Numbered from the stretch's first letter, positions 2,793 through 25,726 are shown. The stretch: DNA of 28,298 bases from a bacterium (GCA_963663405.2 CAXXSM010000077.1:1-28298); one strand, 5' to 3'. Translations and numbers: made by a program. Notes: a model not told the origin generated them from the sequence alone.

Positions 2793-5700
2793 ATGAAACT
2801 CCGGATCACCGATCAACATCGGACACACGTTGAAGAATTTCGTAAGAAACACCGGACAGCTCTTCTAGCGCTTCTTTTCACGGATATCGTCGGCTCTACA
2901 AAAATCAAGCAGCAATTAGGAGACAACCAAGGCGTGGCGTTGATAAAACAACATCACGACCTGGTTCGCATACTGCTTCGTGAGTTTCCAGAAGGTGAAG
3001 AGATTGACGTAGCGGGTGACTCCTTCTTCCTCGTATTCACCAAACCTTCTGACGCGGTGAAATTTTCTCTTCAGTTACAATCCAAACTACGAGCTTTCGT
3101 TCGAGAGATTCCTCACCCTGTGCTGGATCGAATCGGAATACATCTCGGAGAAGTGGTGGTTGAAGAACGGGAAGGATCGGCCCAAAAAAAAAGACTTACT
3201 AGGCATCCAAGTCGACACCTGTTCTCGTGTTATGTCGGTTGGTAAAGGGGATCAAATTTTGATGACCCGTTCAGTGTTCGATAACGCCCGACAAGTCTTG
3301 AAAGGAGAGGATATTGAAAATACAACCGAGTTAATGTGGATGAACCACGGACAATTCATGCTCAAAGGAGTTGAGGAACCCATTGAGATTTGTGAAGTCG
3401 GTGAGATTCATTCCGCCTATCTCACGCCTCCCTCTGATTCCGAGAAAGCGCGCAGATATATCTCAACAGACAGCGATCTCATCCTTGGTTGGCAACCGGC
3501 ATTAGAACAAAGTGTTCCAACGAGCACCGAGTGGGTTCTTGAAGAAAAACTCGGTGAGGGAGGGTTTGGAGAAGTTTGGAAAGCGCGTCATCGGCAATTG
3601 AACGAATGCCGTGTCTTCAAGTTTTGTTTCCGCGCAGACCGCGTGCGGACACTGAAACGGGAAGTCACTTTATTTCGCCTTCTTAAGGAGCGCGTTGGCG
3701 AGCATCCCAATATCGTTAAACTATACGATGTTTTTTTTTGACGAGCCACCTTATTATATCGTCACGGAGTACGTGGAAGGGAAGGATTTGAACTCGTGGT
3801 GTCAAGAACTTGGAGGAGTAGATAACGTACCCCAGGAAACTCGTCTAGAAATTGTGGCTCAAACCGCTGAAGCTCTGCAGGCGGCGCATGATGCGGGAGT
3901 GATCCATCGAGATGTGAAACCAGCCAATATTCTTATTCGGAGTGGTGGAAACATCGCCTGGGGACGTTCAAGTCAAACTTGCTGACTTTGGAATCAGTCA
4001 AGTCGTTTCCTCCGGACATGCTGGCGGGGCTCTCTCGCAGCGGTTTCACTCAAACCGTAATGATAGGGGAAAGCGCGTCTCGTTCCGGAACGCATATGTA
4101 TATGGCTCCTGAACTGATTGCCGGAAAATCGGCGTCGATTCGTTCGGACATCTATTCCCTGGGAGTAGTTTTGTATCAGCTTTTCATTGGTGATTTATCC
4201 AGCCCGATTGGGGCAGGATGGGAAGAGAAGATTTCTATTCCACTTCTCCGAGTGGATATTATGCAATGCTATGCAGGTGACCCCGATCGACGGTTCGCCA
4301 GCGCGCGGGAACTGTCGAGAAACCTGCGGTCAATGAAGAAGCGAGAGTATGAGTGGAACGAACGAGAGAAAGCGGAACGTCTCATTGCGCGCCGCCGGAA
4401 ACTGACCGCCTTATCGATCTTACTCGCAAGTATTCTCTTGCTTATTGCTATTGCGTTGGGATATGGTCTAAGACAAGCTGCGTTCGAACGAAATATCGCA
4501 ATTGAAGAGAGTCGAAAAGCCGTTCAAGCCAAAAATTTGGCCGAACAAGAGCAGTATTTCGCCAATTTCGCCCTTGCGTATTCTCACATCAAGGAGAATC
4601 GATTCGAACAAGCTCGTAAACTTCTCAAGGCCTGTCCGGAATGGTGTAGAAATTTGGAGTGGGGAAGAGCCCAATTATTATGCAATCAAGACGTATTCAC
4701 GTTACGAGGACATTCCGGAGATGTGTGGTCCGTCGCATTGAGCCCTGATGGAAAACTGGCCGCTACTGGGAGTACAGAGCAAGCGAAGATTTGGGATGCG
4801 ATAACAGGTCGGGAGCTTCTCACATTAGAAGTCCCATCCATACCCCTGGCAGTCTTTAGCCCATCTGGGGATTATCTAGCCGTAGGCAATACCGACAACA
4901 CTGTCACACTATTGAATGCGCAGACCGGCGATGAGCTGAGCGTCCTCAAAGGGCATACAGCGTCTATCGCATGTTTCGCTTTTAGTATGGATGGAGAACG
5001 TATCCTTACAGAAGCGATGGACGAAACCGGAAAAGTATGGGATGTAAAAACCGGTCACGCTCTATTTACTCTTAAAGGTTTGAGTGGACCGGTCTCTGCA
5101 GTAGCTTTTAGTCCAGATGGCAAGCGGATCGCGACGGAAAGTGGATGGAAAACAGCAAGTGTTTGGGATGTGGAGACCGGTAAGAAACTGCACACACTGG
5201 AAGGACACTCCGACGCCGTCACGTATATTTCATTCAGCCCCGACAGCAAGCGAATTCTTACCGCCAGCTTAGACCATACATCAAGAGTCTGGAACGTCGA
5301 AACGGGTGATTCCCTGCTTACTTTGAAAGGACATACTGGGGCTTTAGTTCATTCCACATTCAACTCGAGCGGCGATTATATTGTTTCCTCAAGCGTCCGC
5401 AATCAAGTGAGAATATGGGACGCAAATACGGGAGCCCAGCTTTTTACCCTTGACGCGATTGGTGGAGATCACGCCGTCTCATTCAGCCCTGATGGTAAAC
5501 GTATAGTAACCATAGGCATGGATAAGGAAGCGAATCTCTGGGATATACAAACCGGTTGTATGCTCGTTTCTCTCAAAGGCCATTCGGAGGGAGTCACTTC
5601 TGTCGCATTCGATCCTGACGGCAAGCGCGTCGTTACTGGAAGCAGGGATCATTCAGCGAGAATTTGGGATGCGGACACCGGCCGGGAACTGCATTGTTTT

Positions 5701-8607
5701 CATGGTCACTCTAATGATGTAACGTTTGTATCATTTAATCCCGATGGGAAATATGTGCTTTCAGGAAGCGCCGACGGAACCGGAATTGTCTGGGATGCGA
5801 AGACGGATCGAACGCTTTTTTCTCTACCCGAACTTGACAGCGAAAGCCCTAGGGATCCAGAGCATTTACGAGGGAATATTCATTTCGTCTCATTTACTCC
5901 GGATGGGGAACGGATTGTGACAGTAAGCTCTGATAAAATAATCCGTATCTGGAGTGTTAAAACTGGTGTAGAATTGATTCGGTTGAAGGGGCATACCGGT
6001 TTGAGATTAAGTGAGATTCCTCAAACGAATGAAAATCCTGTTGAGGATCTTCACTTCGTTCAACTTTCCCAGGATGGAAGACGCATTGCTGTAGAAAATC
6101 TCGATAGGATGATCACCGTATTCGACACAACGAATGGAAAACTAATTAATTCTTTTGAGGCGCCTCTCAGGACGGAACTATTCAAACTTAGTCAAGACGG
6201 AAATCGCATAGCCATTAAGAATCAGGATAACCAGATTTCGTTAAGAGAAGTAGAAAGTGGTAGGGAATTAATTACATTAGGAGAACACAAATCCGATATC
6301 AAATCCATAGCGATCCGCTCTGACAACCAACAAATCCTATTAGGCTGTCTTAATGGAACCGTGGAAATTTGGGATATAGAATTAGGTAAAAAACAGTTTG
6401 TACTCGAAGGCCATTCCGGCTGCGTCAAGCATGCCGTGTACACAGTAAACAATAAATATATCATTACCCAAAGTGATGAAACAATAGTATGGGATAGCGA
6501 TGGTCATAAAATAGCGCAATTAAACCATGAAAAAGAACAAGAATCTTTGATAACCTTGTCTCCGGACGGCAAGCGTTTAGCCCTTTGTCAATCGGATAAT
6601 ACTGTGCAGATATTGGATACGAAACTAGGGCAAGAAATTATGTCGCTCAAGGGACATTCTGACGTTGTGATTCACTGCGCTTTCAGTCAAGACGGGAAAC
6701 ATATTCTCACCGGTTCTTCTGATGGAACAGCGAAATTATGGTTGCTAGAAAACGATAAAACAGAGGCTTCGCGCGCGGGAGAAAATACGTTTATATCTTG
6801 TGCTTTCAGTCGGGATGGCAGGCAATACCTAATCGGATGGAATGACAATACCGCGAGACTAATGGATACTAAACGCGGTGAAGAAATCCTGCGTTTAGAA
6901 GGCCACAATCCGAATGTGAACTGTGTTGCGTATAGCCCTGACGGCAAACGTATTGTCACAGGAGCTTTTCAACCCGCGGGAATGCAAATGTGGGAGGGGG
7001 AGACAGGAATAGAATTAACATGGTTTCATAAGCAATGTGACATTCGAACTATCGCTTTTAGCCGGGATGGAAAACATATCGTAACGGGAGGATTAGACTA
7101 TACAATATGGGACTCACACAACGGGCAGAAACTACAGACGATTGAAGGCATCGAATTCGGGAGGAAACCCGTCGCGCTCAGCCCAACAGGGAATCAATTG
7201 GTCACCGCGTTTGGAGACCATGCGGCGAAAGTGTGGGATGTGGAAACCGCTGTCGAACGATTTCATCTTAACGAACACTCATCAAGCGTTTGTTCTGTCT
7301 CTTACAGCCCGGATGGCGGTAAAATCATCACTTCATGTGTAGGCAATACGGCGAAAGTATGGGATGCGAAAACCGGCGAAGAATTAACTCATTTAACACT
7401 CTGGGATGAACATCCTATTCAACTATGTTCTATCGTCGCGTTTCGACCGGATGGGAAACGTTTTGCGACCAGCTGCGGCGCCGTTGTGAAAGTATGGGAT
7501 ACAGAAAATTACCAAGAGATTTTTTCGTTTGACACCCATTCTTCGTTAATCATGTGTCTTGCCTTTAGTCCTAATGGTAAACAGATTGCCACGGGATCCT
7601 TTATTGGTCCGGCGAAGATCTGGAATGCGGAAAGCGGAGATCTCTTGCTTAGGCTTGGTGACGAGAAAGCGAAAGTAAACTGTATTGCTTATAGCCCGGA
7701 TGGAAGTCGGATTATTGTGGGTGGGAAGATCTGGGATATAGAGACCGGGCAAGAAATATATACATTAAAGGTTTCGTCTGGCAGAATCAACGCCGTCGCG
7801 CTCAGTCCCGACGGAAAGCGAATCGCTACGGGAAGCGATGACAAAACCGTTAAAATTTGGGATACGCAAACTGGACATGCGCTCTTTTCGCTAAAAGGAT
7901 ATGAAAAACGTGTCGGATCCATCCATTTCAGCCCGGACGGCAAACACATCCTTACCGTGGAGGAGAACGGCCATACCGCAACGATTTGGAATATGGAAAA
8001 AGGTAATGCAATCCATACCTTGAAAGGACACAACAACGTTGTCTGGTCAGCGGTGTATAATTATGATGGTAGTAAAGCCACTACTGCGAGCAGTGATGGA
8101 ACAGTAAAGGTTTGGGACGCGATAACCGGTGAAGAATTATTCACTCTCGATAAACATAAGGATATTGTCAAGCATGTTCTCTTCAGTCCTAACGGCGATA
8201 GAATTCTAACAGGAAGCCGAGACTCGACGGCGAAAATATGGGATACTGAGAGTGGTCAAGAATTACACACATTAGTCGGCCATACACATGGAGATGTATA
8301 CCTGACGGCATTCAGTCCTGATGGGAAACGAATCATCACGATAGGCGACGACCATGTAGCCAAAGTGTGGGATACGATCACTGGACGTGAACTCATGTCT
8401 TTCCCAGTCACCCCTCTCAGCGCGATCACCTTCAGCCAAGATGGTCAGAGAATCCTTGCGGTCGATAAGAAGGGGCGATTCATCGAATGGGATACATTTC
8501 CATTGCATGAGCAAGATTATCCCGGCGATTCCAGCGTTCTCTTTACAGATCGAGTAGAACTCTACAAACAGGTGTATTGGAAAAAACATCATTTTCAAGG
8601 AGAATAG
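2793..8607 (+). CDS. Class III nucleotide cyclase - Hanks Ser/Thr kinase - TM - WD40 repeat protein (4 frameshifts; pseudogene or sequencing errors)
   Basis: Cyclase motifs FTDIVGST, GDSF, RIGIHLGEV. Kinase motifs LGEGGFGEVW, HRDVKPANIL, KLADFG (in a frame missing from the ORF track, ~3975-3992), GTHMYMAPE, SDIYSLGVV. TM LTALSILLASILLLIAIALGYGL, then WD40 repeats. Frames are joined by an extra base at A9 3184-3192, T9 3731-3739, ~3950-3963 and ~4005-4012. Confidence 0.88.
4690..8493 (+). repeat. Roughly 28-30 WD40 repeats (about four beta-propellers)
   Basis: Recurrent LxGH...V..vaFSPDGkri.tgS.D.takiWD units of ~42 aa; count estimated from length. Confidence 0.9.
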
Positions 8608-8650
8608 AAAACCAATATTGTTTGCAGTTGAGACGGAAAGCAGGGGAAAA

Positions 8651-8829
8651 ATGAATATAAGGACTCGTGTTTTCATCTTTATTCCCTGCCTTTGTATCTC
8701 TGCACTTGTTATCTTTTTCGGTTGTCAAAGATCTGATTTGAGATCGAGACAATTCAACTTGTTAATTCAGACTGCTATTGGTGGTGATATAGATTATCAA
8801 AAGAGGTTTTTAGACAATCTTACCTATAA
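8651..8829 (+). pseudogene. 5' half of putative lipoprotein gene disrupted by IS1380
   Basis: Signal/lipobox-like MNIRTRVFIFIPCLCISALVIFFGC. Ends ...DNLTY at TSD TATAA and continues in frame at 17053. Confidence 0.8.
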
Positions 8830-8933
8830 CCTAAGCTGAGCGATTATGTGTGAATAATACTGATAAAAAACTGCGTAACGCTTTGATTTCTCATACGTTA
8901 TACATATATGGCATTCATAATTTAATCTAACCT

Positions 8934-9379
8934 CAGACCTCACTAAAACAGCCATTTTAGCCCCAAAATAATCGCAAATAAGATTCCCACTTTCTGAGGG
9001 AATTTGCTGTCAGCCTACTCCCCTCTACAATCCAGTAATTCAATAAATAAAAAAACAGAGAGGGACTCATCATTTCTCCTTTATCACATTCCGATTATTT
9101 ACAAAAGATTTTAGGCACGGACAAGAGAAATCCGGTGTTTACGATTTTCTGCGATGAAGAGGAAGACCAGTTGCATGTCTATTACGGCGCGGATCTATTA
9201 GAAATTGTACCGGACGATCGAGAGCATATCGACAGACCTCACTAAAACAGCCATTTTTACCCCAAAATAATCGCAAATAAGATTCCCACTTTCCGAGGGA
9301 ATTTGCTGTCAGCCTACTCCCCTCTACAATCCAGTAATTCAATAAATAAAAAAACAGAGAGGGACTCATCATTTCTCCT
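8934..9379 (+). repeat. Tandem duplication of the IS left end (299-bp unit)
   Basis: 8934-9080 recurs at 9233-9379 with a few differences (TTTTAGCCCC vs TTTTTACCCC; TTTCTGAG vs TTTCCGAG). 9081-9232 recurs at 13125-13276. Confidence 0.95.
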
Positions 9380-9387
9380 ATGATAAG

Positions 9388-9393
9388 TGTCTA
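9388..9393 (-). promoter_or_regulatory. -35 box (TAGACA) of predicted IS110 circle-junction promoter; -10 TATGAA at 13110-13115
   Basis: Joining the ends through one core gives TAGACA-17 bp-TATGAA with TGG before the -10. Junction promoters are established for IS110. Confidence 0.6.
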
Positions 9394-9616
9394 CTCCACA
9401 AAATGAAAATTTTCATTTTTTATGGATGTATGTATTTCTTGCACAGATGAGATCGGGAATTCTTTTCATAAATATGCAGTTATGAAAAACAGAATGTCCA
9501 CTTTTCTCATCTCTATTTCTTTAGTTTCTTGCTCATCTTCCGATAGTAATTCTTACCAGGGAAAGCGGAGACAGGCTCTGCTGGAGAGCAACCTGTCAAG
9601 GAATACCCTGATGCGT

Positions 9617-11761
9617 GTGCGACGGATTGTCGCTGAGGGGGCGGATTTTATTTCGTCCCCTTTTCGTTTGCCCAGCGAAGCGGGCAACTCCGGCTTGTTG
9701 AAAGAAACAGGCGTCGCCCCGGCCAAGGGGAAGACAATCCGAATCGCAAGGGCGCCGCTGGCAACGGCGGGGTCTGAAGGAAGCGATAGGAAGTGAGCGG
9801 CACACAGCGCGAGCGAACCTGATTCGGCGGCGCGGGTGGGTAAGCGTGCGAAATAGCGCGAAGCCCGGTACTTGGTCAGACCCGTGACGTGATTGAGGGT
9901 GGGGCTGCTCACAGGAACCCGTCAGTAACTGGGGAAGCCTCATATCGTTCCGCCCGGCACAGCCGGAGCGGATAGTGAAACTCAAGAGGAGACTCGAGAC
10001 GGATCGAAGCGGTGTGAGGTGGCAGATGAATCCGTAGTAGTGTTGAAATCCCGGCCGGAGAAAGCGGGTAACCGTCTGGAGGAGAAAACCGGGATGACCT
10101 GCGGCCAAGTTCGCAGGGGCTGGTACGAGCCAAAAGCCGTAGCAGTTGCGAAGGGAAGAAGTTGATTTGAAGGTTCTTGAAACTCGACCGAAGCGCGGAA
10201 CCGAGTGCAAACCATCCAACGGGATGGGGCGCTTGAAAGGCGGTAGGCTGTGAAAGGCTGTCTGCTCTTCTTGGCCGCTCACTGGAGTAACTTGGATCGG
10301 AGACCGCACATTGCCTGAGAAGGATAGAAGACGGCGAGGACCAAGTGAAGACCCAGAGGGAAAGCGAAGAGGGCGAGGGGAAAGGAACGCAGGAGTCAGA
10401 GCCGTGAAAGTCTACTACAGTCTATACGACCGGATGTTGTCGAAGCGAAATCTATTCGACGCATTCAGGAAGGTGGAGTCCGCGAAAGGCGCCGCCGGAA
10501 TCGACCGGCAGTCCATCGAGGGATTTGCAGAGGATCTGGACGAGAATCTCACCGCGCTGGCGAAGGAACTCCGGGAAAAAAAGTACCGGCCGAAACCGGT
10601 CAAACGAGTGGAAATTCCCAAGCCGAATGGCGGGATCAGGAAACTCGGAATTCCCGCAGTCCGAGACCGGGTTGTGCAACAGACCCTATTGAACATTCTG
10701 CAACCGATATTCGATCCGGAATTTCATCCGTCGAGTTACGGGTATCGTCCGAAACGGAGTTGTCACCAGGCGATAGCCAAAGCGGCGATGTTTATCCGGG
10801 AAGGCGGATTGCAATGGGTCGTCGACATGGACTTGTCGAAATGTTTTGACACACTGGATCATGAATTGATCCTGCAAGGAATTCGTAAGCGGATCACAGA
10901 CGGAAGCATTTTGAATCTGATCCGTCTGTTCTTGGAGAGCGGTGTAATGACGGAGGAAGGCTGGCAGGCGAGTATAGTGGGAAGTCCACAAGGAGGAGTG
11001 ATCAGTCCCCTGATCGCCAATATCTACTTGGACGCGTTCGATCAATTCATGAAAAATCGAAACCACCGCATCGTTCGCTACGCCGATGACATCCTGATTT
11101 TAACTCGCTCGAAAAGCGCCGCGGAGAACGCCCGCAAGCAGGCAAGCGCCTACCTGGAAGGGGAACTCAAACTCACCGTAAACCAACAGAAGACCCATAT
11201 TGTCCATAGCCGGGACGGGGTGAAATTTCTCGGAGTGATGATCCACACGGGTTATACTCGCATCCAGGAGGACAAGATCAAAGGGTTGAAAGGAAAGGTG
11301 AAGAAGATCACCCGGCGTAATTCTCCGGTGAATCTGAAGAAGGTCATCGAAGATCTGAACCCGGTGATCCGTGGGTTTGCGAACTATTTCCGGATCGCGA
11401 ACTGCAAGGGAGTGTTCGAAGCCCTGACGAAATGGATCCGAAGACGCCTGCGAGCCAAGCAACTCAGTTTGTGGAAGAAGCCGAAAAGGCTGCATCGCCA
11501 ATTGAGACGGCTGGGTTACAAGGGGGAATTTCAATTCATCAAGATGAGATCGTGGAGAAATGCAGCGAGTCCATTAGCCAGTTTTTCCATGCCCAACTGG
11601 TATTTGGAAGAACTGGGGTTGTTCGATATGGAATCTGTGAAAACCGGAATTTCTGTTTCAATCAAATGAAGGAAAATCAACAGGAGCCGTATACGAGGCC
11701 CGTACGTACGGTTCTGTGAGAGGGATAAGGTAGGAAGGCCTCCTACCTTACCCTACTCGAT
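9617..11761 (+). mobile_element. Group II intron with RT/maturase ORF
   Basis: 5' GTGCG at 9617 (GTGTG at 9615 is an alternative); domain V GAGCCGTATACGAGGCCCGTACGTACGGTTC at 11684-11714; domain VI hairpin with bulged A; ends ...CTACTCGAT. Confidence 0.93.
10404..11669 (+). CDS. ltrA: Group II intron reverse transcriptase/maturase, no HNH endonuclease domain
   Basis: GAAGID, RKLGIPAVRDRVVQ, SYGYRP, GSPQGGVISP, RYADD and domain X (LNPVIRGFANYF). GTG start with AGGAG at 10391-10395. Confidence 0.95.
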   Translation: MKVYYSLYDRMLSKRNLFDAFRKVESAKGAAGIDRQSIEGFAEDLDENLTALAKELREKKYRPKPVKRVEIPKPNGGIRKLGIPAVRDRVVQQTLLNILQPIFDPEFHPSSYGYRPKRSCHQAIAKAAMFIREGGLQWVVDMDLSKCFDTLDHELILQGIRKRITDGSILNLIRLFLESGVMTEEGWQASIVGSPQGGVISPLIANIYLDAFDQFMKNRNHRIVRYADDILILTRSKSAAENARKQASAYLEGELKLTVNQQKTHIVHSRDGVKFLGVMIHTGYTRIQEDKIKGLKGKVKKITRRNSPVNLKKVIEDLNPVIRGFANYFRIANCKGVFEALTKWIRRRLRAKQLSLWKKPKRLHRQLRRLGYKGEFQFIKMRSWRNAASPLASFSMPNWYLEELGLFDMESVKTGISVSIK

Positions 11762-11855
11762 CCAAATGACAAGCCCGAGCATTCGCTTATGCCTAAAAAA
11801 ACTCATGAACGACTTTCCGGCTCAGATCGACTCTTGGGAAAACCGAATCCTCCTC

Positions 11856-12893
11856 CTACGACCCACCAGCGCGATTGGCATCCTGCAGCACAAAATTGGG
11901 AAAATCTTCAAACACCCATTTATTCTTCAATGTGTTGTATATCACTCGTAAAAATTTCCGGGCCAACGCAATGATGGCTTTGCCTGTTCCTCTCTCCACT
12001 TTCTTGCGTTCATAAAATGTTCGCAGATACGGACTATAACGAATCGCGATCAACGCGCATTGCACTAAGGTCGTACGAGCCAGTTTGTTGCCTTGTTTCG
12101 TGATCCGTCCCGATCGCTCCGTTTCGTTCGAATTGCTTACGCGGGGAACCAATCCCAAATACGAGGCAATTTTCCCTTCATTTTCGAAATCATTCACATC
12201 GCCGATCACGGACAATAGAATGCTCGCGCTGGTCTTCCCGATCCCCTTGATGCTGGTCAGATTGGTATGACCTTCCTGTTTGGGACCTTCCTCGTGGATG
12301 GTCGATTCCAGTTTCTTAATGCTCTCATTCAAACTGCGAATTTGATCGACCAGCACCTGCAATTCCGCAGCGACCAACGTGTCCCATGGAAATGACAGAA
12401 CCTTCTGCAGCCCTTTTTCGCTGGACAATTCTTCCCGCTTCAATTCGATTCCATGCGCCGACAAGATATTATTGATCTTGTTTTTTAACGTCGTCCGTAG
12501 TTTCACTAATTTGTCGCGGGTTTGGGTGAGGCTGGCCATTTGCGCCTGCATTTTGTCTTTCATTCTCACCTCCGGCAGTGGGTGATCTTTGGCTAAGAAC
12601 AACGCTAAGGTTTCCGCGTCGTTCTTATCCGTTTTCTTGACCGACTGGCTGATCACCTTGAACTGACTTGGATTCACGATCACCACGCGTTTGACACGCG
12701 TCTGGATCGCCTCGTAAAACATCCGGGTGTTCCCCGTCGATTCGACGGCCACCTGATCCGACCGGCGAAGCGTCTGGAGGAAATCCGGCAACTCACTCAT
12801 TCTCCAGGTTGTTGTCGCTTTCACTTTTTGTTTCGTACGCCTGCATACGGTAAAACAATTCCGATGTAAGTCGATTCCTAAATAGTCTGCCAT
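11856..12893 (-). CDS. IS110-family DEDD recombinase/transposase
   Basis: LGIDLH, AVESTG, KTDKNDA (DEDD); SIKGIG; SYLGLVPRVSNS (Tnp-domain serine). Confidence 0.95.
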   Translation of the reverse strand: MADYLGIDLHRNCFTVCRRTKQKVKATTTWRMSELPDFLQTLRRSDQVAVESTGNTRMFYEAIQTRVKRVVIVNPSQFKVISQSVKKTDKNDAETLALFLAKDHPLPEVRMKDKMQAQMASLTQTRDKLVKLRTTLKNKINNILSAHGIELKREELSSEKGLQKVLSFPWDTLVAAELQVLVDQIRSLNESIKKLESTIHEEGPKQEGHTNLTSIKGIGKTSASILLSVIGDVNDFENEGKIASYLGLVPRVSNSNETERSGRITKQGNKLARTTLVQCALIAIRYSPYLRTFYERKKVERGTGKAIIALARKFLRVIYNTLKNKWVFEDFPNFVLQDANRAGGS

Positions 12894-12909
12894 GTCTCCA
12901 CCTCGTTCT

Positions 12910-13103
12910 TGTTTGGGTGGAGTAGACGTGCTTTGGGGCGGTCACCAAACTCCTATCCAAGGTCGCTATGCCTTATGGTGGCGCTTCGGTTATAGGTCTG
13001 ACCAATCTCCTTTACGAGGTCGCTGTGCCTCACTAAACGATACAGCCTATAACCTGTCTACTCCGGATTACTATTGGTTTCGTCCGGAATCTCACCGCCT
13101 CAA
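12910..13103 (-). ncRNA. Predicted IS110 bridge RNA
   Basis: Two parallel stem/internal-loop/hairpin modules (GG-CAYAGCGA-CC) whose loop strands match the target and donor sequences; closed by GGAGUAGAC/GUCUACUCC. Ends are approximate. Confidence 0.8.
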
Positions 13104-13118
13104 GCCTTATTCATACCA

Positions 13119-15383
13119 TCTCCTTTATCACATTCCGATTATTTACAAAAGATTTTAGGCACGGACAAGAGAAATCCGGTGTTTACGATTTTCTGCGATG
13201 AAGAGGAAGACCAGTTGCATGTCTATTACGGCGCGGATCTATTAGAAATTGTACCGGACGATCGAGAGCATATCGAATACAAATTACTCGTCGCTCGACT
13301 CTACAACGCCAACCTCAATGCGACCATCTTGCAAGAAGTCTTTCAAGTGGACCGGAAAACCATGAAGCGGTGGGGCGCCGCTCTTCGCTCTGGGGATAGT
13401 GAACAACTACGGAAAGTGTTGTTTGGCCGCCAAGCGCGAAGAAAACTCACTCCGGAAATCGAATCGTATATCCGCATGCGATTTCCCGCGATTTACGAGG
13501 AAACAAAATATGAATATAGCAAACGGATGCGGGAAGAAATTGAGCAGGTGTTCGGCTGCACGCTATCCGGGGAAACGCTCCGTCCCTTGCTGAGAGAATT
13601 GAAGGAAAGCATAAAAGTTCAAAAGGAAAATGAGGAAACTCCCTGGGATTGTGAGCAGGAACCCGAGATCGAAGAAGAGGAGAAGACAAGCGAAATTGGC
13701 TCTGAAAACGAAGAAATTCGAGAACAATCTAAGGAGTCATCCACACCAATGCCTTGTAACAATCGCAAGGAGTCTCCCGAATTAAAAGAAGCCTTTCCGG
13801 AGGAAGTGACGCTGTGTCATCACCTGGGCGTGTTGCTGTTCAGCGCCTTGTTTCTCAGTCTCGACGCTTTCCCGGGGGAGGCGAGTTGGCTGCTCAAACA
13901 ATGGGTGGCGATCATCTTGTTAGGAGCGGTCAATATCGAACAAACCAAGTTGCTGGATTTCGAGGATTTGAAACGGCTTTTGGGGAAGTGCATGCGCTCC
14001 TTGCATGACCAACGAACGCATCTGGGCCAAATGGCGACGGTCGCGATGGCGGAGCAGGTTCTTCGGTTAAACGCCGCAGAGGTCGATGCGGCGGCGAACG
14101 ATGACTTTTATTACGATCCCCATACGAAACTCTATACAGGAATCCAGAACGTCTTGAAAGGCTGGTGTCCAAGCATTCGTTCGGCGGATAAAGCGCTCCA
14201 TATGGATTTTATTCACACGGCGGCGGGGCATCCGGTGTATCTCGAATCGACCGATAACTACGAAGACATGCGGGATCGGTTTTTTCAGGTGACCAACCAC
14301 TTTCGAGCGCTTTTACAGATGGATAAAAAGAAGGTGATCACCTTCATCGTTGACCGTGGGATATACAGTCTTGAAGTCTTTCAGAAATTCATCGAAGATC
14401 CTTCCACGCATGTGATCACGTGGGAAAAGAATTACAAGTTGGCGCCTTGGCCAGCGGAACCGGCGCCGGGAGCCTTCACGCTGGAACGGAACCGCAATTG
14501 CGCTACGGATCTGCAACTCTATACCTTCGCCTGCCTTGATGAGCGCTGGGAAAAGGATTCGTCGATGCGGAGGCTGCGCGTGCGCGCGACCAATCCCAAA
14601 GGACGGACGATCGAAGTGGGCGTATTGACCGATGACTTGACTCGGCCGGCCCCAGAGATAATTACCTTGATCTTCCGGCGCTGGATCCAGGAAAATGATT
14701 TTAAGTATTTGGACAAACACTTTGGGATTAACGAAATCACCAGTTATGCGGTGATTCCTTACAAGCGATTACAAGATCACCTGGAAGATCAACAAATGAA
14801 GAGCGGCGCATATAAAGCGCTGGAAATGGAACGAAGCCAAACGCAAGAGAAATTGGGCAAACTCTTGGTCCAGGAGCGTCAACATCCCGGAAAAAATGCG
14901 AAACGAGCCGAAAAGATTCAAACCTTGTCTCACCGGCTGGATGAGATTGACGAGGAAATGAAAACGACAGAAAAGGAAATGTCCCGGCTCGAGTTTTTAA
15001 TCGAGCAGGATTGCGTCCGCTTGGATACACGCAATAAATATTTGATGGACGTTTTGAAATTGTTGGCGCGAAATATCTTTTATAAAATGCTGGAGCCGTT
15101 CAAAAAAGAGTATGATAATTTCAGGGATGATCACGTGCTCTTTCGTTCCTTAACTCAATCGGATGGAGTCATCAAACAACAGGGAGATCAGGTGGAAGTC
15201 ATTCTCCTTCCGAAACCGAATTATCCACCGAAAGTAAGGCGGATTATGGAGCAGTATCTGGCTAACATCAATGAGACCCACCCCCTTATGCACGATGGCT
15301 CGAATCGGCAAATTCACTTTCGACTGGGGAAAAAATCGGAATTTGAAATTGCGATTGTTTCAGGACCAAAACGGCCGAAATAG
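13119..15383 (+). CDS. Large DDE transposase with N-terminal HTH region; start codon separated by the IS110
   Basis: FYYDPH, FIVDRG and RRWIQENDFKY catalytic motifs; HTH-like LQEVFQVDRKTMKRW; coiled-coil insert; stop lies within the right TIR. Confidence 0.85.
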   Translation, partial: SPLSHSDYLQKILGTDKRNPVFTIFCDEEEDQLHVYYGADLLEIVPDDREHIEYKLLVARLYNANLNATILQEVFQVDRKTMKRWGAALRSGDSEQLRKVLFGRQARRKLTPEIESYIRMRFPAIYEETKYEYSKRMREEIEQVFGCTLSGETLRPLLRELKESIKVQKENEETPWDCEQEPEIEEEEKTSEIGSENEEIREQSKESSTPMPCNNRKESPELKEAFPEEVTLCHHLGVLLFSALFLSLDAFPGEASWLLKQWVAIILLGAVNIEQTKLLDFEDLKRLLGKCMRSLHDQRTHLGQMATVAMAEQVLRLNAAEVDAAANDDFYYDPHTKLYTGIQNVLKGWCPSIRSADKALHMDFIHTAAGHPVYLESTDNYEDMRDRFFQVTNHFRALLQMDKKKVITFIVDRGIYSLEVFQKFIEDPSTHVITWEKNYKLAPWPAEPAPGAFTLERNRNCATDLQLYTFACLDERWEKDSSMRRLRVRATNPKGRTIEVGVLTDDLTRPAPEIITLIFRRWIQENDFKYLDKHFGINEITSYAVIPYKRLQDHLEDQQMKSGAYKALEMERSQTQEKLGKLLVQERQHPGKNAKRAEKIQTLSHRLDEIDEEMKTTEKEMSRLEFLIEQDCVRLDTRNKYLMDVLKLLARNIFYKMLEPFKKEYDNFRDDHVLFRSLTQSDGVIKQQGDQVEVILLPKPNYPPKVRRIMEQYLANINETHPLMHDGSNRQIHFRLGKKSEFEIAIVSGPKRPK

Positions 15384-15415
15384 TGAGTTCTGAACCTATT
15401 GGGTGAGGGAAATCA

Positions 15416-16818
15416 ATGGCGCGTTCCAAGAAAAAATCGAAACGAAATCCGGCTAAGATCACTAAAATTGGAGTCACCTCCGATGTGCTGACTTCGCGAG
15501 GAGGACTCAACTTCTTTTCAAAGTATATTGAAAACATACAAATTCTTTCTGTCTTAGGAATGCTATTTGGCTCCATCCGGAAAAGTAAAAAAGGACAGTC
15601 AATCGAAACCATCTTAAAACAAGTGATCTGTAATTTAATGAATGGCATGAGCCGCCATTTGACTTACTTTGACCAATTGAAGACGGATCAAGGCTATACC
15701 GCCAGTCTCGAACTGACGTCGGAGGAGATGGTCTCCTCTCACAGCGTCAAACGATTTTTTAAAGCCTTTTCCATGCCCCTGGTTTGGGCGTTTCGCAAAC
15801 TGTTGAAGCAACTGTTCCTGTGGCGGTTGCGGTTGGAGAATCCACTCGTCATTTATCTCGGAATCGATTCAATGGTGATGGACAACGACGAAGCCAGCAA
15901 GCGGGATGGAGTGCAGCCGACGTACAAAAAAAAGAAAGGCTTTCACCCGTTGCAGATGACGTGGAAGCGAGTGATTATAGATGCGGTGTTCCGTGGAGGC
16001 AAGAAACATTGCAACCATGGAGAGACGGTGGCCAATATGGCGCGAGAAATCGTGAAACTCATCCGGAAAAAATATCGGAAAGACGTAGCCATCGTCTTTC
16101 TTCTGGATGGAGGATTTTTCGACGAAAAACTCTTCCAGGAATTTGAAGCGCTGAAGGTCGGGTATATCTGGGGGGGAAACTCTACGAAGACCTTTCGGAC
16201 TATGCCGAAAGCCTGGAGAAAGAAGAGTGGAAAAAGTATACCAATGGGAAAGACGGATGGGATTATTACGAGATGGAGGATCGGCGAGCGAGTTGGTCAA
16301 AATCGCGCCGCGCCATTTTCTGCCGCTTCACCGCGGAAGATCCGCAGCGAGTGTTTGACGCGTTTCGTCCCCTGACGATACTCTATACCAACTTGGGGCA
16401 AGGTGAGTCGATTGACGAACAACTTCTATTCGTTGGTCGGCAGGATCTCATCCAGACCGAAAAGATCCTCGAATGCGCTCATGGACGGGGACGGGATGAA
16501 CTAGTCCATCGCGCCTTCAAGAACTTTGCCTTCGAGGCCCTACCGTTCCAGCGGTTCGCTCCGAATGCCGCCTACTATTACACAATGGTTGTCTCTCACT
16601 TTTTATACGAATGTTTCAAAGCAGATACATGTGAGGCGATCTTGCCTCTCGAAACGTATGCGTCGACTTTCCGACGAAAAGTAATTGATATCGCTTCAAA
16701 GATTGTTCGAAAGAGTGGAGAGATATGGATCAAGTTCACTCAGGCCACTTGGAACGATCTCCAACTCGATAAATTCTGGGACCGATGTAAGAATCCCCCT
16801 CAATTTGTTTGGACCTAA
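15416..16818 (+). CDS. IS1380-family transposase (one frameshift at G7 16170-16176)
   Basis: LTSRGGL, LGIDS, YKKKKGFHPL, LDGGF, HGRGRDELVHR, F..NAAYY. Restoring one base joins the two ORFs via ...GGKLYEDL. Confidence 0.88.
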
Positions 16819-17047
16819 GTAAAAAAGACAATTCCATCTTGAAGACCTGCCAATGTAACAGGATAAGTGCGCCTATAGGCTGATAATTTCAACTCGACGG
16901 TTCCTGTTCATACCCACTATTTCACTTACACGTTCTTTTTTTTCTGGATTTTCTATGAAATTAAACTTACATTTATCAAACAACATAGTTGATCTTTGTA
17001 ATTTCAATTAAAATGAATATTTTTCAAGAAGAATCGCTCAATTTAGG

Positions 17048-17430
17048 TATAAATCTAAGTTTACGCAGAGCGGAATTGCAAAATTAGAAAACGGTGTATA
17101 TCGAGAACCGGACGGTTTAGAGATTCGGCTTTATGAAGGCGCAATTGGTGATCTAACCGGTGATGGCTTGAACGACGCCGTCGTGATTCTAGAATCTACT
17201 CCAGATGAAAATCATACATTCTATCACTTGGCTGTCGTTGCGAACCGGGATAGAGTATATTAGCATGTTGATTCTATTTATCTGGGAGAATTAGAATCAC
17301 TTTTTTTAGGCATCTCACAATTTAATCCAATGAAATCTATATTGAAATCCTTACTCGTCACGAGGGAGAAATCATTAAAACTAACAAAAAATTCAAATTT
17401 GACTCAGATCACCTGATCGAAATTCCGTAA
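17048..17430 (+). pseudogene. 3' half of the disrupted lipoprotein gene, paralog of 17481-18128
   Basis: YKSKFTQSGIAKLENGVYRE..GDLTGDGLNDAVVIL..FYHLAVV aligns with the downstream gene; in-frame TAG at 17261 and a frameshift near 17300-17325. Confidence 0.85.
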
Positions 17431-17480
17431 CTTTTTTTATGGCATTCTTTGTAGTTCCAGGCGGAAGGAGGTCCAGCAAA

Positions 17481-18128
17481 GTGGATAAAAGGACTCGCAT
17501 ATTTGTTCGTGTTTCTCTTGTTTTTATTCTTATCTACTATTTCTTCGGTCAAAAAGAAAAAGATACCGATACCAAGGCGCTCGATCCAGTTTCAGAAGAA
17601 AACCTGACAGCAGATTCCGTGTCACCTGATTCTATCCTTCCAACCATTATTCCAGAATCGGTGCAGAAATTTATCTATAAATCTAATTTATCGCGGAGTG
17701 AACAAACTTGGTTAGTTGACAATTCCTATCGGGATTCGTTGATGAACCTTACCTATGAATCTGATTTTACACAGAGCGGAAAAGCCAGGTTGGTTGATGG
17801 TGTATATAGAGAACAAACCATTCACGGTTCTTCGGATGAACTTGTTATACGGCTAGGGGATGAAATCGCGTTAGGGGATCTAAACCAGGATGGTTCAAAT
17901 GACGCAGCCGTGATATTGATTTCAAAACCAGGTGGAAGAGGCGCATTTTATCATGTGGCCGCCGTTTTAAAACAAAATAGAACGTTTGCACATGTTTCTT
18001 CCGCTTATCTCGGTGATGGAATCCAAATTCGACAGGTCGAAATCGAATCCAGTGAAATCCATGTCAATGTAAATACAGCATTAAAAAAATATAAACTGGA
18101 TTCTAACCGTTTACGAGAAATACAGTAA
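17481..18128 (+). CDS. Membrane-anchored hypothetical protein with DxNxDG (FG-GAP/Ca-binding-like) motif
   Basis: GTG start after AAGGAGG; N-terminal TM; GDLNQDGSNDAAV. Confidence 0.75.
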   Translation: MDKRTRIFVRVSLVFILIYYFFGQKEKDTDTKALDPVSEENLTADSVSPDSILPTIIPESVQKFIYKSNLSRSEQTWLVDNSYRDSLMNLTYESDFTQSGKARLVDGVYREQTIHGSSDELVIRLGDEIALGDLNQDGSNDAAVILISKPGGRGAFYHVAAVLKQNRTFAHVSSAYLGDGIQIRQVEIESSEIHVNVNTALKKYKLDSNRLREIQ

Positions 18129-19118: not shown

Positions 19119-20455
19119 GGCTCTCCTCCTGAGAATCTGTGCGTAATAAGAGGATAGAAACACACGCTAACTCGTGTAATCTCAGTTTGCTGAGAACACA
19201 AGAAACACGAAAGGAAGCGTGTGTTGTTAAAGAGTATCGTGAAAAGAACGCTTGGACTCAAGAGGCATTCCGTCCTATCCATCAAAAGCCAAGAAGGAAA
19301 ACTCCTTATTGTTCTGACCATTCGAACGAATTGGCGGTTACCCTGCGCCAGTGTGGAACGCTGAGTCGAGTGCGCGATCGACTCAAAGAAAGAAGATGGC
19401 GAAATGTTCCTCTGTGGGGAATTCCCAGCGAGATTCGATACCGTCCGGCTCGTGTACGCTGTCCCAACTGCCAAGCGGTGAAAGTGGAAGCGATCCCTTG
19501 GTCTTCCGGTAAAAGCCCTTTAACAGTCGGCTTCATTTGGTTGCTTGCGGCGTGGGTAAAAGTCCTGGCTTGGAAAGTGGTGGCGGAGCGGTTCGATGTG
19601 CACTGGAACAGTGTTCAAGGCGCGGTGCGGCAAGCCGTGGATTATGGATTCAAGCATCGTGATTTAGGTTCGATTTTTTGTATAGGGATCGATGAACTTT
19701 CGCGGAAAAAAGGCCATGTATACGTGACCAACGTCTATGACTTGGAGGAGAAGCGATTGATCTGGAGCGGCGAGGGCCGCAGTCAGGAGACTCTGAACGA
19801 ATTTTTCGAAGAACACGGAGAAGCCCTGAAAGACTAGGTGATTGGTGTGTGCTGCGATATGTGGCAGCCGTATATTGCCATGATTGAGGAACGACTGCCG
19901 AACTCCACATTGATCTTCGATAAATTCCATATCGCGCAGCATTTGAACCAGGCTGTGGATGAAGTGCGGAAAGAAGAAGCCCGTGAATTGAAGAAAGAAA
20001 ATCCCGAACTCTTACAGAGAACCCGTTACATCTGGTTGAAAAATCCAGAGAATTTGACCGACAAGCAACGGGCTCGCTTGGGCCATCTGGAGAAGGTAAA
20101 TCTACGAACGAATCGGGCGTATTTGCTAAAGGAAGGATTTCGAGAATTTTGGAGTTATTGGTCGAAAGGCTGGGCAAAGAAATTCCTTGCGAAATGGTTC
20201 TGGTGGGCGACGCATTCCCGGTTAAAACCGATGCGGGATTTCGCCTGGTTGCTTCGGCGCCATCAAGATGGATTGCTCAATTATTTTGAATTACGAATTG
20301 ATAATGGAGCGGTAGAAGGAATGAACAACAAGGCCAAAGTCATCAGCCATCGTTGCTATGGATTCCACACGGCGAAAACCTACATCCTGGCTCTTTACCA
20401 TGGTCTCGGTAATCTACCTGAACCTGATCTCGTGAACAAATGCTTGTGAGGAGCC
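19119..20455 (+). mobile_element. ISL3-family insertion sequence
   Basis: Ends GGCTC / GAGCC; 8-bp TSD TTATTTTT at 19111-19118 and 20456-20463. Confidence 0.92.
19221..20449 (+). pseudogene. ISL3 transposase pseudogene
   Basis: Zn finger (C..C, CPNC), IGIDE, CCDMW, FDKFH, NGAVEGMNNK; frameshift near 19345 and in-frame TAG at 19835. Confidence 0.9.
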
Positions 20456-23047: not shown

Positions 23048-23164
23048 TGTCAACCATATATGACGTATAGAAATCGTATATACGTTGGATATCAATAAAA
23101 ATAAGAATATATTAATAATAAAACGTCATATATAGTTGACACTTTGCGCCTTCATGAGTATTAT
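23048..23164 (+). promoter_or_regulatory. Sigma70-like promoter overlapped by a 19-bp inverted repeat
   Basis: TTGACA 23136-23141, 17 bp spacer, TATTAT 23159-23164; IR arms 23048-23066 and 23123-23141 (18/19). Confidence 0.7.
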
Positions 23165-23200
23165 CCCTATGTGCTTAAATCCGCCCATGGGAGTGAACCG

Positions 23201-23662
23201 ATGAACGAAACAAAATCGCAGTTCCTCGCAAAAGAAGGCCTCTTAAATCCAAAGCCGGAGCGAATCTCTTCCCCCCTGTTCCAAACTCTTGATTTTTTCG
23301 ATCCCTTCGACCTGCCCCAGGTTCGATATGAGATGCTTCGCGCGGCTCGAAGTGACACGATGTCTGTGGCTGAAGCCTGCCGCCTCTTTGGGTTTTCCAG
23401 GGAGTATTTCTACCGGCTCGAACGGATGTTCATGCAGCGGGGCTACGTGGCTTTACTTGGCTCCTCCATGGGCCGACGCCCCCTTCTCGCTCTCAACCAA
23501 GAGATTGTCAACTTCATCATTCACCGTAAACTCGAACAACCTCAATTGTCGGGGGAGAACTTACGGCAAGAAATCTTACGCCTCTACAAAGTTGATTGTT
23601 CACGCCGGACCGTCGAACGGATTGTGGAAAAGACGGGTCTGAGTAAAAAAGGGCTCCGCTGA
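23201..23662 (+). CDS. Helix-turn-helix protein (IS ORF A)
   Basis: ATG after GGGAG; LNPKPE..FFDPFDLPQVRYEMLR; HTH SVAEACRLFGFSREYFYRL; second HTH-like CSRRTVERI. Confidence 0.8.
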   Translation: MNETKSQFLAKEGLLNPKPERISSPLFQTLDFFDPFDLPQVRYEMLRAARSDTMSVAEACRLFGFSREYFYRLERMFMQRGYVALLGSSMGRRPLLALNQEIVNFIIHRKLEQPQLSGENLRQEILRLYKVDCSRRTVERIVEKTGLSKKGLR

Positions 23663-23664
23663 CA

Positions 23665-25721: not shown

Positions 25722-25726
25722 CCTGT

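Follow-up and report, generated by a model that had tools for sequence, protein, structure and literature searches.

A four-layer nest of mobile elements, from an IS1380-family element to a group II intron, in a bacterial draft genome

A window of 28,298 nt from a draft bacterial genome (contig CAXXSM010000077.1 of assembly GCA_963663405.2; 170 contigs, 82% complete) holds mobile elements lodged one inside another, which raises the questions of how they came to be stacked and whether the stack could still move as a whole. Four layers are present: an IS1380-family element contains a Tn5-like element (layer 2), which contains an IS110-type element, which contains a group II intron. The nesting order and the 'three chemistries' proposed in the first-pass annotation hold at family level, with two DDE transposases, one DEDD/serine RNA-guided recombinase and one ribozyme with its reverse transcriptase. 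All boundaries, a vacant version of each layer and the family assignments are established, and all parts are known kinds of mobile DNA rather than a new kind of system. The whole is very probably a well-resolved case of ordinary nesting, in which successive, independent insertions were stacked in a small host gene and the site of each layer is accounted for by the known target habit of the guest.

Outer architecture and the IS1380 layer

The outer features of the nest are the following (positions are those of the window).

8618..8829, + strand: 5' part of the interrupted host open reading frame (ORF), the rest being 17053-17263
8825-8829 and 17048-17052: left and right copies of the IS1380 target duplication TATAA
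8830..17047, + strand: IS1380-family element with all guests, 8218 bp (1754 bp without guests; inverted ends at 8830-8845 and 17032-17047)
15416..16818, + strand: IS1380 transposase, split into 15416-16375 (319 aa) and 16273-16818 (181 aa)

Joined in silico, the two parts of the host ORF encode 140 aa, the C-terminal half of which is paralogous to the gene at 17439-18128, with 53% identity across 83 aa. The inverted ends of the outer element (CCTAAGCTGAGCGATT and CCTAAATTGAGCGATT) match at 14 of 16 positions and read CCTAAG at the terminus. Three guest-free copies of 1758-1759 bp occur in the same genome, each with its own 5-bp duplication, and such target duplications flank all four IS1380 copies. 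Members of the IS1380 family make target duplications of 4-5 bp and have CC ends. Regarding the transposase, the intact sister copy C28 (467 aa) scored 221.6 bits against the curated model NF033539 (cut-off 180; positions 4-417 of 419), and the 319-aa fragment of the window alone scored 125.6 bits. The full-length match of the intact paralogue, the short inverted ends and the 5-bp duplications together assign the outer layer to the IS1380 family.

A single long ORF is found in three of the four IS1380 copies and is frameshifted in the window copy. One T, kept by the other three copies, is missing near position 16170 (CTGTGGGGGG has become CTGGGGGGG), so that the 467-aa ORF is split into 319 and 181 aa. 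This 1-nt deletion falls within a G-rich run and may have arisen in assembly; the sole contig of the public run X19 over the site carries the T, and probably derives from the other IS1380 copies. The window copy is the most diverged of the four, with 26 of 42 variable columns private to it. The earlier description of termini and ORF bodies as intact thus stands for the layer-2 and IS110 ORFs and for the IS1380 ends, but not for the IS1380 ORF.

The guests sit in non-coding ends, as had been proposed: 18 nt separate layer 2 from the IS1380 start codon downstream of it, 54 nt separate the IS110-type element from the start codon of layer 2, likewise downstream, and the intron follows the stop codon of the IS110 gene at a distance of 94 nt. 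The search for simpler copies, suggested at the same time, yielded the three guest-free IS1380 copies and four IS110-free copies of layer 2 in this genome, and an intron-free form of the IS110 layer, identical in sequence, in contigs of two other public runs (X21 and X23). One contig of run X1 joins 8824 to 17048 with 5 shared letters at a depth of 2.5 (the sequence between being marked 'not known'), and this joint is possibly the empty site for the whole stack.

A misassembly of all or part of the stack, with repeats wrongly threaded, especially at an extra 299-nt left end of layer 2 described below, is scarcely credible. All layers except IS110 are multi-copy repeats with 97-100% identity, the genome is a draft of 170 contigs, and no contig or read examined from the public runs spans the whole 8.2 kb, these records being short graph contigs that break at repeat borders. 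Each junction nevertheless coincides to the base with the end of an element, and the target duplications agree, as do vacant sites elsewhere. A separate graph assembly of run X19 (which may be the source data of this assembly) breaks at the predicted borders 8858, 9232, 13148, 13247 and 17018, and one of its contigs bridges the 3' end of the intron into IS110 (11706-13148). The intron-free and IS110-free forms in other runs, moreover, are to the base the predicted excision products.

Layer 2 and its duplicated left end

Layer 2 comprises the following features.

8929..8933 and 15393-15397: left and right copies of the target duplication AACCT
8934-15392: layer 2 including the extra left end and guests, flanked by AACCT
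8934..9232, + strand: repeat of the leftmost 299 nt of layer 2, lacking IS110 and stopping where the second, complete left terminus starts (9233)
9233..15392, + strand: full layer-2 element, 2415 bp without its guest
13179..15383, + strand: layer-2 transposase, 734 aa, intact, with a predicted Tn5-fold core

The empty site is represented by the three guest-free IS1380 copies, in which the two IS1380 halves overlap by exactly 5 nt (AACCT). The inverted ends of layer 2 (CAGACCTCACTAAAACAGCC and CAGAACTCACTATTTCGGCC) match at 15 of 20 positions. Of the four IS110-free copies (C119, C65, C81 and C147), two have 6-bp duplications, as against 5 bp here, and the window element is 99.2-99.7% identical to three of its copies.

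The designation 'IS4-like' given to this layer is borne out by the modelled fold but not by curated IS4 sequence models, and layer 2 is here called Tn5-like by fold only. The structure model (mean pLDDT 74) matched the Tn5 transposase with a Foldseek E-value of 1.1e-5 and, in VIA-align, with a Z-score of 15.3 (rmsd 5.1 over 296 residues; model 216-662 against chain 5-458), the next unrelated fold reaching a Z-score of 9.7. Strands 433-484, between the invariant residues D392 and E505, correspond to the inserted beta-strand domain of the Tn5 fold. The invariant residues include F499-x-R501-W502-x-Q-E505-N-D-F-K509. The IS4 signature is Y-(2)-R-(3)-E-(6)-K; R, W and E of layer 2 fit, whereas its aromatic residue is F at R-2 and its K lies at E+4, not at E+7. 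Searches with curated IS4-type models gave no significant match (Pfam DDE_Tnp_1, E 0.13; PF21804, 19.1 bits at a cut-off of 27), NCBIfam gave no IS4 match and yielded only an N-terminal IS630-like match (31 bits, cut-off 100), and a profile search of PDB sequences returned nothing relevant. Compared with the Tn5/IS50 transposase, the IS4 prototype, the modelled core (216-662) superposes on nearly the whole Tn5 chain and RW..E is conserved, but the protein, at 734 aa, also carries a long helical insert and, at its N terminus, an additional helix-turn-helix region of IS630-like type, and the element makes duplications of 5-6 bp. Relatives are numerous: of 8000 candidates scored, 1298 reached E <= 0.001, most of them annotated as hypothetical. 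Layer 2 thus represents a large family of Tn5-fold transposases of about 750 aa without a curated IS-family assignment, which may prove more useful than the nest itself.

The duplicated left 299 nt were overlooked when this layer was described as an IS4-like element. The extra left end differs from the second at 3 columns; positions 9075-9232 (158 nt) are 100% identical to 13119-13276, whereas 3 differences fall in the 147 nt before them. The 9232|9233 junction has indirect support from run X19, whose unitigs stop at 9232 and begin at 13247, and from the higher depth of the 158-nt piece. In the favoured account, a second layer-2 copy probably landed 299 nt inside the first, and homologous recombination between the two bodies would have removed the redundant part, the extra 299-nt left end remaining. 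The junction coincides with base 1 of the complete left terminus, which points to transposase rather than slippage, and two direct repeats of 2.1 kb with about 99% identity would be expected to recombine. A less probable origin, though one to be taken seriously, is an event other than self-insertion with homologous deletion, for instance a layer-2 transposition that was aberrant or one-ended, or a tandem duplication followed by gene conversion. Such an origin would agree with the flanks of the inner copy, which form no separate target duplication (ATCGA on the left, AACCT on the right), and with the perfect match over 158 nt next to 3 differences in the preceding 147 nt. Against the favoured account, a mosaic pattern was looked for in the variable sites of layer 2 and was absent.

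The IS110-type element and its intron

The two inner layers comprise the following features.

9374..9379 and 13119-13124: core TCTCCT at the IS110 junctions, present once in vacant layer-2 copies
9380..13118, - strand: IS110-type element with intron, 3739 nt between the cores (1643 nt without the intron)
9635..9665, + strand: terminator-like hairpin followed by TTTTC, directly before the intron (60 nt upstream fold at -25.7 kcal/mol; hairpin conserved in the relative L002)
9666..11761, + strand: class C group II intron, 2096 nt, antisense to the IS110 transposase gene
10311..11669, + strand: intron-encoded reverse transcriptase (RT)/maturase, 452 aa
11856..12893, - strand: IS110 transposase, 345 aa, intact
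12894..13118, - strand: upstream non-coding end of IS110, a candidate bridge/seek RNA with a conserved two-loop structure

The IS110 transposase scored 242.4 bits against NF033542 (cut-off 140; positions 1-341 of 343) and matches PF01548 and PF02371. The DEDD and Transposase_20 model matches, the shared core and the lack of a true target duplication place layer 3 in the IS110 family, IS110 type. This assembly holds no second copy. The window element is identical to that in run X21, and an intron-free relative in genome G009 (78% nucleotide identity) has kept the hairpin. In the upstream end, a consensus structure from 20 sequences has 42 pairs, 16 of them with compensatory changes, and its two internal loops carry invariant words, one target-like (GTAAAGGAGAT) and one resembling the right end (ATAGGAG). 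RNA guidance is inferred from this conservation of structure, the pairing of guide and target being readable only ambiguously. IS621 and other IS110-group elements carry a bridge/seek RNA in the upstream non-coding end (PMC11208160; PMC11187229). The window element resembles them in its DEDD and Transposase_20 recombinase, in having neither long inverted ends nor a true target duplication, and in the conserved structured RNA with two internal loops upstream of its gene. It differs in that Rfam models gave no match to this RNA, and in the relative length of its ends: discounting the intron, 379 nt lie downstream of the gene and 225 nt upstream, unlike the usual IS110-group pattern (PMC11208160).

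On the minus strand the TCTCCT core reads AAGGAGA followed by AATGATG, a look-alike of a Shine-Dalgarno (SD) sequence with its ATG. Among IS110 relatives, 81 loci were scanned and both ends were recognised in 51. In eight multi-copy sets the right junction ends in AGGAG (or AGGA) in 32 of 32 copies, and (A)AGGAG(A) is found at or just before the left junction in all copies but two in CP121311. A start codon 3-14 nt past the terminal AGGAG, opening at least 60 codons, was present at 37 of the 51 relatives, compared with 776 of 5375 random control positions (14%). The landing of IS110 in the end of layer 2 would follow from the insertion of this clade at SD sites and from the SD-ATG look-alike carried by that end.

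IS900 and its mycobacterial relatives are said to insert between a ribosome-binding site and the start codon. They share with the present clade the IS110-family membership, the SD-start-codon sites and a fixed orientation, but the recombinases are only distantly related and a shared RNA logic is conjecture. The nesting itself recalls a known site-specific IS110-family element in the end of another transposon; that case is of IS1111 type and involves terminal repeats, whereas here the element is of IS110 type and the target is an SD-like motif 146 nt inside the host element.

It is conceivable, at somewhat less than an even chance, that this widespread clade, whose members here come mostly from Acidobacteriota-type metagenome genomes, has a guide-RNA target loop fixed on the SD consensus and hands the gene a replacement SD (..CATAGGAG) from its right end. 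With a loop so fixed, the clade could land before almost any gene, and the resemblance of the layer-2 end to an SD-ATG site would have been reason enough for its colonisation. Translation start regions in general would then be open to invasion by the RNA-guided IS110 elements of this clade, and the composite of layer 2 and IS110, whose sequence is identical in other samples, could spread as a unit. The consistent SD target and the strongly conserved upstream RNA bear on the natural target range of bridge-RNA recombinases and, like the layer-2 family, may prove more useful than the nest.

Regarding the intron, the ends at 9666 and 11761 were derived from three ORF-less relatives and from intron-free contigs joining 9665 to 11762 (skipped ends GT..AT). 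Run X21 contributes a 1072-nt contig with 0 mismatches across this joint and run X23 a similar one; IS110 therefore exists without the intron. The genome holds this single coding copy beside three ORF-less derivatives of about 855 nt. Rfam recognised domains D1-D4 (RF02001, 66.8 bits, cut-off 32) and D5-D6 (RF00029, 41.6 bits, cut-off 40). The RT/maturase scored 416.8 bits against TIGR04416 (cut-off 300), and Pfam showed only RVT_1 and GIIM, with no endonuclease domain. Compared with solved structures, it scored highest against the GsI-IIC RT 6ar1 (278.7 bits), followed by 7uim (275.7), 5hhj (240.4) and 5hhl (237.4), which we take to be IIC RTs, and lower against LtrA (162.5) and 6me0 (156.8). 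A T-run precedes all four intron copies, and a hairpin ending at the T-run was found in all three copies with 60 nt upstream (-25.7, -17.4 and -9.4 kcal/mol), the fourth being cut by a contig end. The closest RT scores, the missing endonuclease domain and the insertion site assign the intron to class C (IIC).

RmInt1, in ISRm2011-2 of Sinorhizobium meliloti, is a class D intron that homes to a transposase-gene sequence in sense orientation. It is likewise a retroelement inside a DNA transposon, whereas the window intron is of class C and lies antisense in a non-coding end, behind a hairpin and T-run. For class C introns, among them B.h.I1 and GsI-IIC, the insertion site lies behind a terminator-like stem-loop and its run of T's (PMC1702495; PMC7306698), and bacterial introns tend toward sites in or near other mobile DNA (PMC7306698). 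The window intron resembles these two in its stem-loop and T's, in its RT without endonuclease domain and in its closest solved RTs, but its stem-loop lies in the non-coding end of another mobile element and faces against the gene of that element.

Order of events and movement as a unit

The nest would have been built in five steps, of which the order of steps 3 and 4, like any present-day activity, is inferred. The divergence figures given above form an age gradient that agrees with this history, greatest for IS1380, slight for layer 2 and nil for IS110. The IS1380-family element would first have entered TATAA, splitting the 140-aa ORF, its copy later losing the reading frame. The 2.4-kb Tn5-fold DDE element would then have landed 104 nt inside the left end of IS1380, duplicating AACCT. 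The probable second landing of layer 2 and the recombination described above form the third step. In the fourth, the IS110-type, presumably RNA-guided element would have entered the layer-2 left end, at AAGGAGA|AATGATG of its minus strand. The class C intron would finally have retrohomed behind the hairpin and T-run, in the variable downstream non-coding end of IS110 and antisense to the transposase gene, a position that spares the conserved upstream bridge/seek RNA-like structure and the recombinase gene.

Movement of the stack as a unit is possible. The first-pass annotation had suggested that the whole might still be mobilisable; in keeping with this, both IS1380 ends share their outermost 30 nt exactly with C7 and C65, free copies that have intact 467-aa genes, whereas the transposase here is frameshifted and the composite junctions are single-copy in the assembly. 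That the stack is a working composite, moved as an 8.2-kb unit bounded by IS1380 or a 6.2-kb unit bounded by layer 2 by means of a sister-copy transposase and carrying the recombinase and intron along, is unlikely. The ends and 734-aa gene of layer 2 are intact, and the junction of IS110 in layer 2 (9350-9379, then IS110) recurs with 0 mismatches in run X21, which has no depth there on the left flank 8300-8610; the X21 junction, however, would be just as likely if IS110 had entered a different layer-2 copy independently, by site-specific insertion. In this assembly (82% complete) IS110 and every composite junction occur once only, the frameshifted IS1380 copy is the most diverged one, and guests lie between each DDE gene and its upstream end. 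Stepwise insertion thus stays the preferred reading, and the stack offers a clean worked example of mobile elements piling into one another's non-coding ends. Since natural intermediates are visible (the empty site, each layer alone, and IS110 with and without the intron), the order of events can be read, and these intermediates supply exact primers and sites for excision and empty-site tests.

Mobile-element genes and guest-free copies of the outer element

The window (28,298 bp) is the complete contig C77, one of the 170 contigs of an 8.44-Mb draft genome. Four mobile-element genes and one ribozyme were recognized between 8830 and 17047 using the ORF listing, Pfam, NCBIfam and Rfam.

Features of the nest, from the outermost to the innermost element
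15416-16375 and 16273-16818, plus strand: IS1380-type transposase, split (ORF listing, Pfam, NCBIfam)
13074-15383: long ORF of the second layer, with a weak match to PF21804 only
12893-11856, minus strand: IS110 transposase (Pfam, NCBIfam)
10311-11669: reverse transcriptase (RT)/maturase of the group II intron (Pfam, NCBIfam)
9755-9922: group II intron domains D1-D4 (Rfam)
11682-11751: group II intron domains D5-D6 (Rfam)

An ISL3 transposase (split; 19139-20449), an IS1-like gene pair (23144-24825) and a Mutator-like transposase (25074-26683) lie elsewhere on the contig, so that the nest sits in a generally IS-dense stretch; a resolvase fragment was located at 1968-2585. Contig C81 of the same genome is the site of another IS cluster.

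The IS1380 element spans 8830-17047, with inverted ends that agree at 14 of 16 positions and TATAA at either flank. A BLASTN search with the parts of the nest against the genome returned three guest-free IS1380 copies (contigs C28, C7 and C65; 1758-1759 bp), every one flanked by a 5-bp duplication of its own; their 467-aa ORF matched the curated IS1380 model with 221.6 bits (cut-off 180). Compared with these copies, the two IS1380 halves in the window share exactly the 5 nt AACCT of the duplication made by the second layer. The window gene is one T short (CTGTGGGGGG to CTGGGGGGG, at about 16170), an apparent deletion in the assembly sequence, and its ORF is thereby split into 319 and 181 aa. 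The sole contig covering this position in the public sequencing run X19, which is possibly the source data of the assembly, has the T, with a depth that suggests an origin in the other IS1380 copies. As 26 of the 42 variable columns in the IS1380 alignment were private to the window copy (manual count), it is the most diverged of the set. Joining the flanks of the stack in silico yielded a 140-aa ORF, the C-terminal half of which shows 53% identity over 83 aa with the next gene; the stack thus interrupts a small paralogous gene. An ORF of 1542 aa consisting almost entirely of WD40 repeats (3979-8607) stops a short way before the interrupted gene.

Relative to the start codons of their hosts, the second layer was inserted 18 nt upstream (in IS1380) and IS110 54 nt upstream (in the second layer); the intron lies 94 nt beyond the stop of the IS110 gene, in antisense orientation, and spares both this gene and the candidate upstream RNA. 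The first-pass annotation had placed each guest either in a non-coding end or at the start of the host's transposase gene; all three positions are non-coding, two guests lying upstream of host start codons and the intron in the IS110 tail. Two of the genes are separated from their upstream ends. As it had proposed, the termini of all layers are intact; of the four coding regions it had taken to be intact, three are so, the exception being the split IS1380 ORF. The simpler copies that it had suggested looking for are present in the genome for the two outer layers, as guest-free IS1380 and as second-layer copies lacking IS110 (C119, C65, C81 and C147). Its suggestion that the 8.2-kb unit may be mobilizable as a whole is favored by the intact termini and weakened by the broken outer transposase and by the composite junctions, none of which was found a second time in the assembly (BLASTN of the parts).

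Graph contigs of four public runs (X1, X19, X21 and X23) were compared with positions 8300-17600. One X1 contig joins 8824 to 17048 with five shared letters and resembles an empty site of the complete stack; its depth is 2.5, its shorter side has 75 letters, and the intervening stretch is marked 'not known'. Joints of 8928 to 15393, i.e., IS1380 without the second layer, occurred in X19, X21 and X1. No contig spanning the whole stretch was found in any of the four runs, and the junctions 8933/8934, 9232/9233, 9665/9666 and 15392/15393 were not among the X19 matches listed.

The Tn5-fold element and its additional left end

The second layer extends from 8934 to 15392 and is flanked by AACCT on either side. 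Free copies of 2412-2415 bp were detected on C119, C65 and C81, and a fourth on C147 is truncated by the contig end. Target duplications of 6 bp were seen in two of the other copies and none in the C81 copy. The copies in the window and on C65 and C147 have an open reading frame, and those on C119 and C81 contain one stop each. In public data the gene product has 734 aa, corresponding to a GTG start at 13179 and to 13179-15383 in the window.

No curated IS-family model in Pfam or NCBIfam matched this transposase. DDE_Tnp_1 was hit at E 0.13 and PF21804 at 19 bits (cut-off 27), and NCBIfam recognized only an IS630-like N-terminal HTH region. Regarding public genome and metagenome proteins, 1298 of 8000 scored candidates were related at E <= 0.001, mostly labeled 'hypothetical' and located on contigs of 2.4-2.7 kb; tblastn found nothing similar to the protein in 72,556 plasmid records. 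A profile of 29 homologues retrieved nothing relevant from the PDB sequences (best E 0.12, a coiled coil). An AlphaFold model built with the 29 homologues (mean pLDDT 74) had Tn5 transposase as its best match (Foldseek E 1.1e-5). VIA aligned 296 residues at Z 15.3 along almost the full length of the Tn5 chain; the next different fold followed at Z 9.7. The invariant residues D313, D392 and E505 are accompanied by the word F-x-RW-x-Q-E-x-x-x-K, a variant of the IS4 signature. The label 'IS4-like' in the first-pass annotation is therefore apt for the fold; membership in the family is not supported by the DDE_Tnp_1 and PF21804 scores. With the 1298 relatives, the transposase represents a large, mostly unannotated family, and it has a Tn5 fold according to the structural model.

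A different element, which does carry PF21804 (about 680 bits), outnumbers every other IS seen in the genome, with 11 full-length copies (C27, C41, C118, C122, C133, C143, C22, C53, C155, C164 and C112) and a further split copy on C38. Its open frames have 593-744 aa (nine of them 603 aa). G010, a genome of the same family, has nine copies of full length, of which one contains a stop.

The first 299 nt of the second layer are present twice, which the first-pass annotation had missed: an extra left end without IS110 (8934-9232) is followed by a second complete left terminus, starting at 9233, that bears IS110. Positions 9075-9232 and 13119-13276 are 100% identical, and there are three differences between the 147-nt left ends. 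The junction 9232/9233 coincides exactly with base 1 of the element, a position that points to the transposase. A second copy probably inserted into the first, after which the two 2.1-kb bodies would have recombined; the variable sites gave no mosaic signal for self-insertion or recombination, the partial copy offering only three informative sites. Among the X19 graph contigs one piece stops at 9232 and another begins at 13247, and the depth was 13.7 for the 158-nt piece vs 10.6 for the body; borders and depth fit a real branch at 9232/9233.

The IS110 element and its target sites

IS110 occupies 9380-13118 with TCTCCT at either flank, a word that is single in the vacant ends of the second layer. 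It is present once in the assembly, and its transposase matched NF033542 with 242.4 bits (cut-off 140). The circle junction is predicted as ..CATAGGAGA/TGGTATG... An intron-free relative in another genome, G009 (locus L002), shows 78% nucleotide identity and has both ends in common.

A scan of one genome per species yielded 80 related loci (L013-L092; 41-71% protein identity), which together with L002 form the clade set. Regarding the eight multi-copy sets, the right junction read AGGAG (or AGGA) in 32 of 32 copies, and, with the exception of two copies in CP121311, (A)AGGAG(A) also stood at the left junction or immediately before it. Both ends were recognized by motifs in 51 of the 81 loci; 37 of these 51 had a start codon 3-14 nt past the terminal AGGAG that opens at least 60 codons, vs 776 of 5375 random control positions (14%), and two of the 14 misses were truncated by the locus end. 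The junction motifs and the excess of start codons indicate that this clade targets Shine-Dalgarno sites. The downstream gene would receive a new Shine-Dalgarno sequence from the right end, ..CATAGGAG. The target in the window, AAGGAGA/AATGATG on the minus strand, is a look-alike of such a site; identical vacant targets occur three times in the genome (the extra 299-nt end, C119 and C81), and C65 and C147 have TCTCAT at this position. A target consensus for IS900 was not found in the passages of PMC8141618 examined.

The 225-nt upstream non-coding end could be aligned with 19 relatives and gave a consensus fold with 42 pairs, 16 of which are backed by compensatory changes, and in this fold two internal loops hold invariant words resembling the target and the right end. 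The placement of this candidate RNA agrees with that of the bridge or seek RNA, which is located upstream in IS110-type elements according to PMC11187229 and PMC11208160. A permissive Rfam scan of 12800-13200 gave no bridge-RNA family match at E <= 1. Inspection by eye for guide-target pairing singled out one 7-nt candidate, complementary, apart from one wobble, to the target's right half; it was set aside, as the same logic failed in two relatives. The downstream end varies from about 100 to 380 nt across relatives. A small plus-strand ORF within it at 9422 (81 codons before the intron) was discarded as a gene since it is unconserved, only a 36-aa stretch being alignable in L002, which reflects nucleotide identity.

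A deleted derivative that shares both ends with the IS110 of the window, about 475 nt long, was located in a further genome, G012 (locus L010, contig C142, about 1382-1856); from the upstream end it has kept 294 nt (90% identity) and from the right end 64 nt. It is located at an AGGAG site before an ATG and may be a non-autonomous miniature element.

The class C group II intron

The intron ends, GTTTGCCC (9666) and CTCGAT (11761), were fixed from three ORF-less relatives of about 855 nt with 89-93% identity (C81:18-872, C81:7500-8354 and C161:20444-19590; loci L095 and L096). A 1072-nt contig of run X21 joins 9350-9665 to 11762-12517 with no mismatches, and a contig of run X23 has the same joint between 9665 and 11762; an intron-free form of the same IS110 in the same second-layer site therefore exists. 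The intron is likewise missing from the G009 relative of IS110.

A strong hairpin and TTTTC directly precede the intron, and a T-run stands before all four copies; insertion behind terminator motifs is an established property of class C introns, as described in PMC1702495 and PMC7306698. The intron RT was nearest to the solved IIC RTs (278.7 and 275.7 bits vs 162.5 bits for LtrA), and no endonuclease domain was found in it with Pfam. It is encoded by the sole RT-bearing copy of its lineage in the assembly (the next RT match has 29% identity), so the ORF-less copies would depend on the nest for splicing and mobility.

At C18:18351-18534 and C18:40575-40700 there are short stretches that weakly match the IS110 downstream end and the intron (79-80% identity), and at C76:87528 there is a lone exact match to the last 13 nt of the intron; these are possibly decayed fragments.
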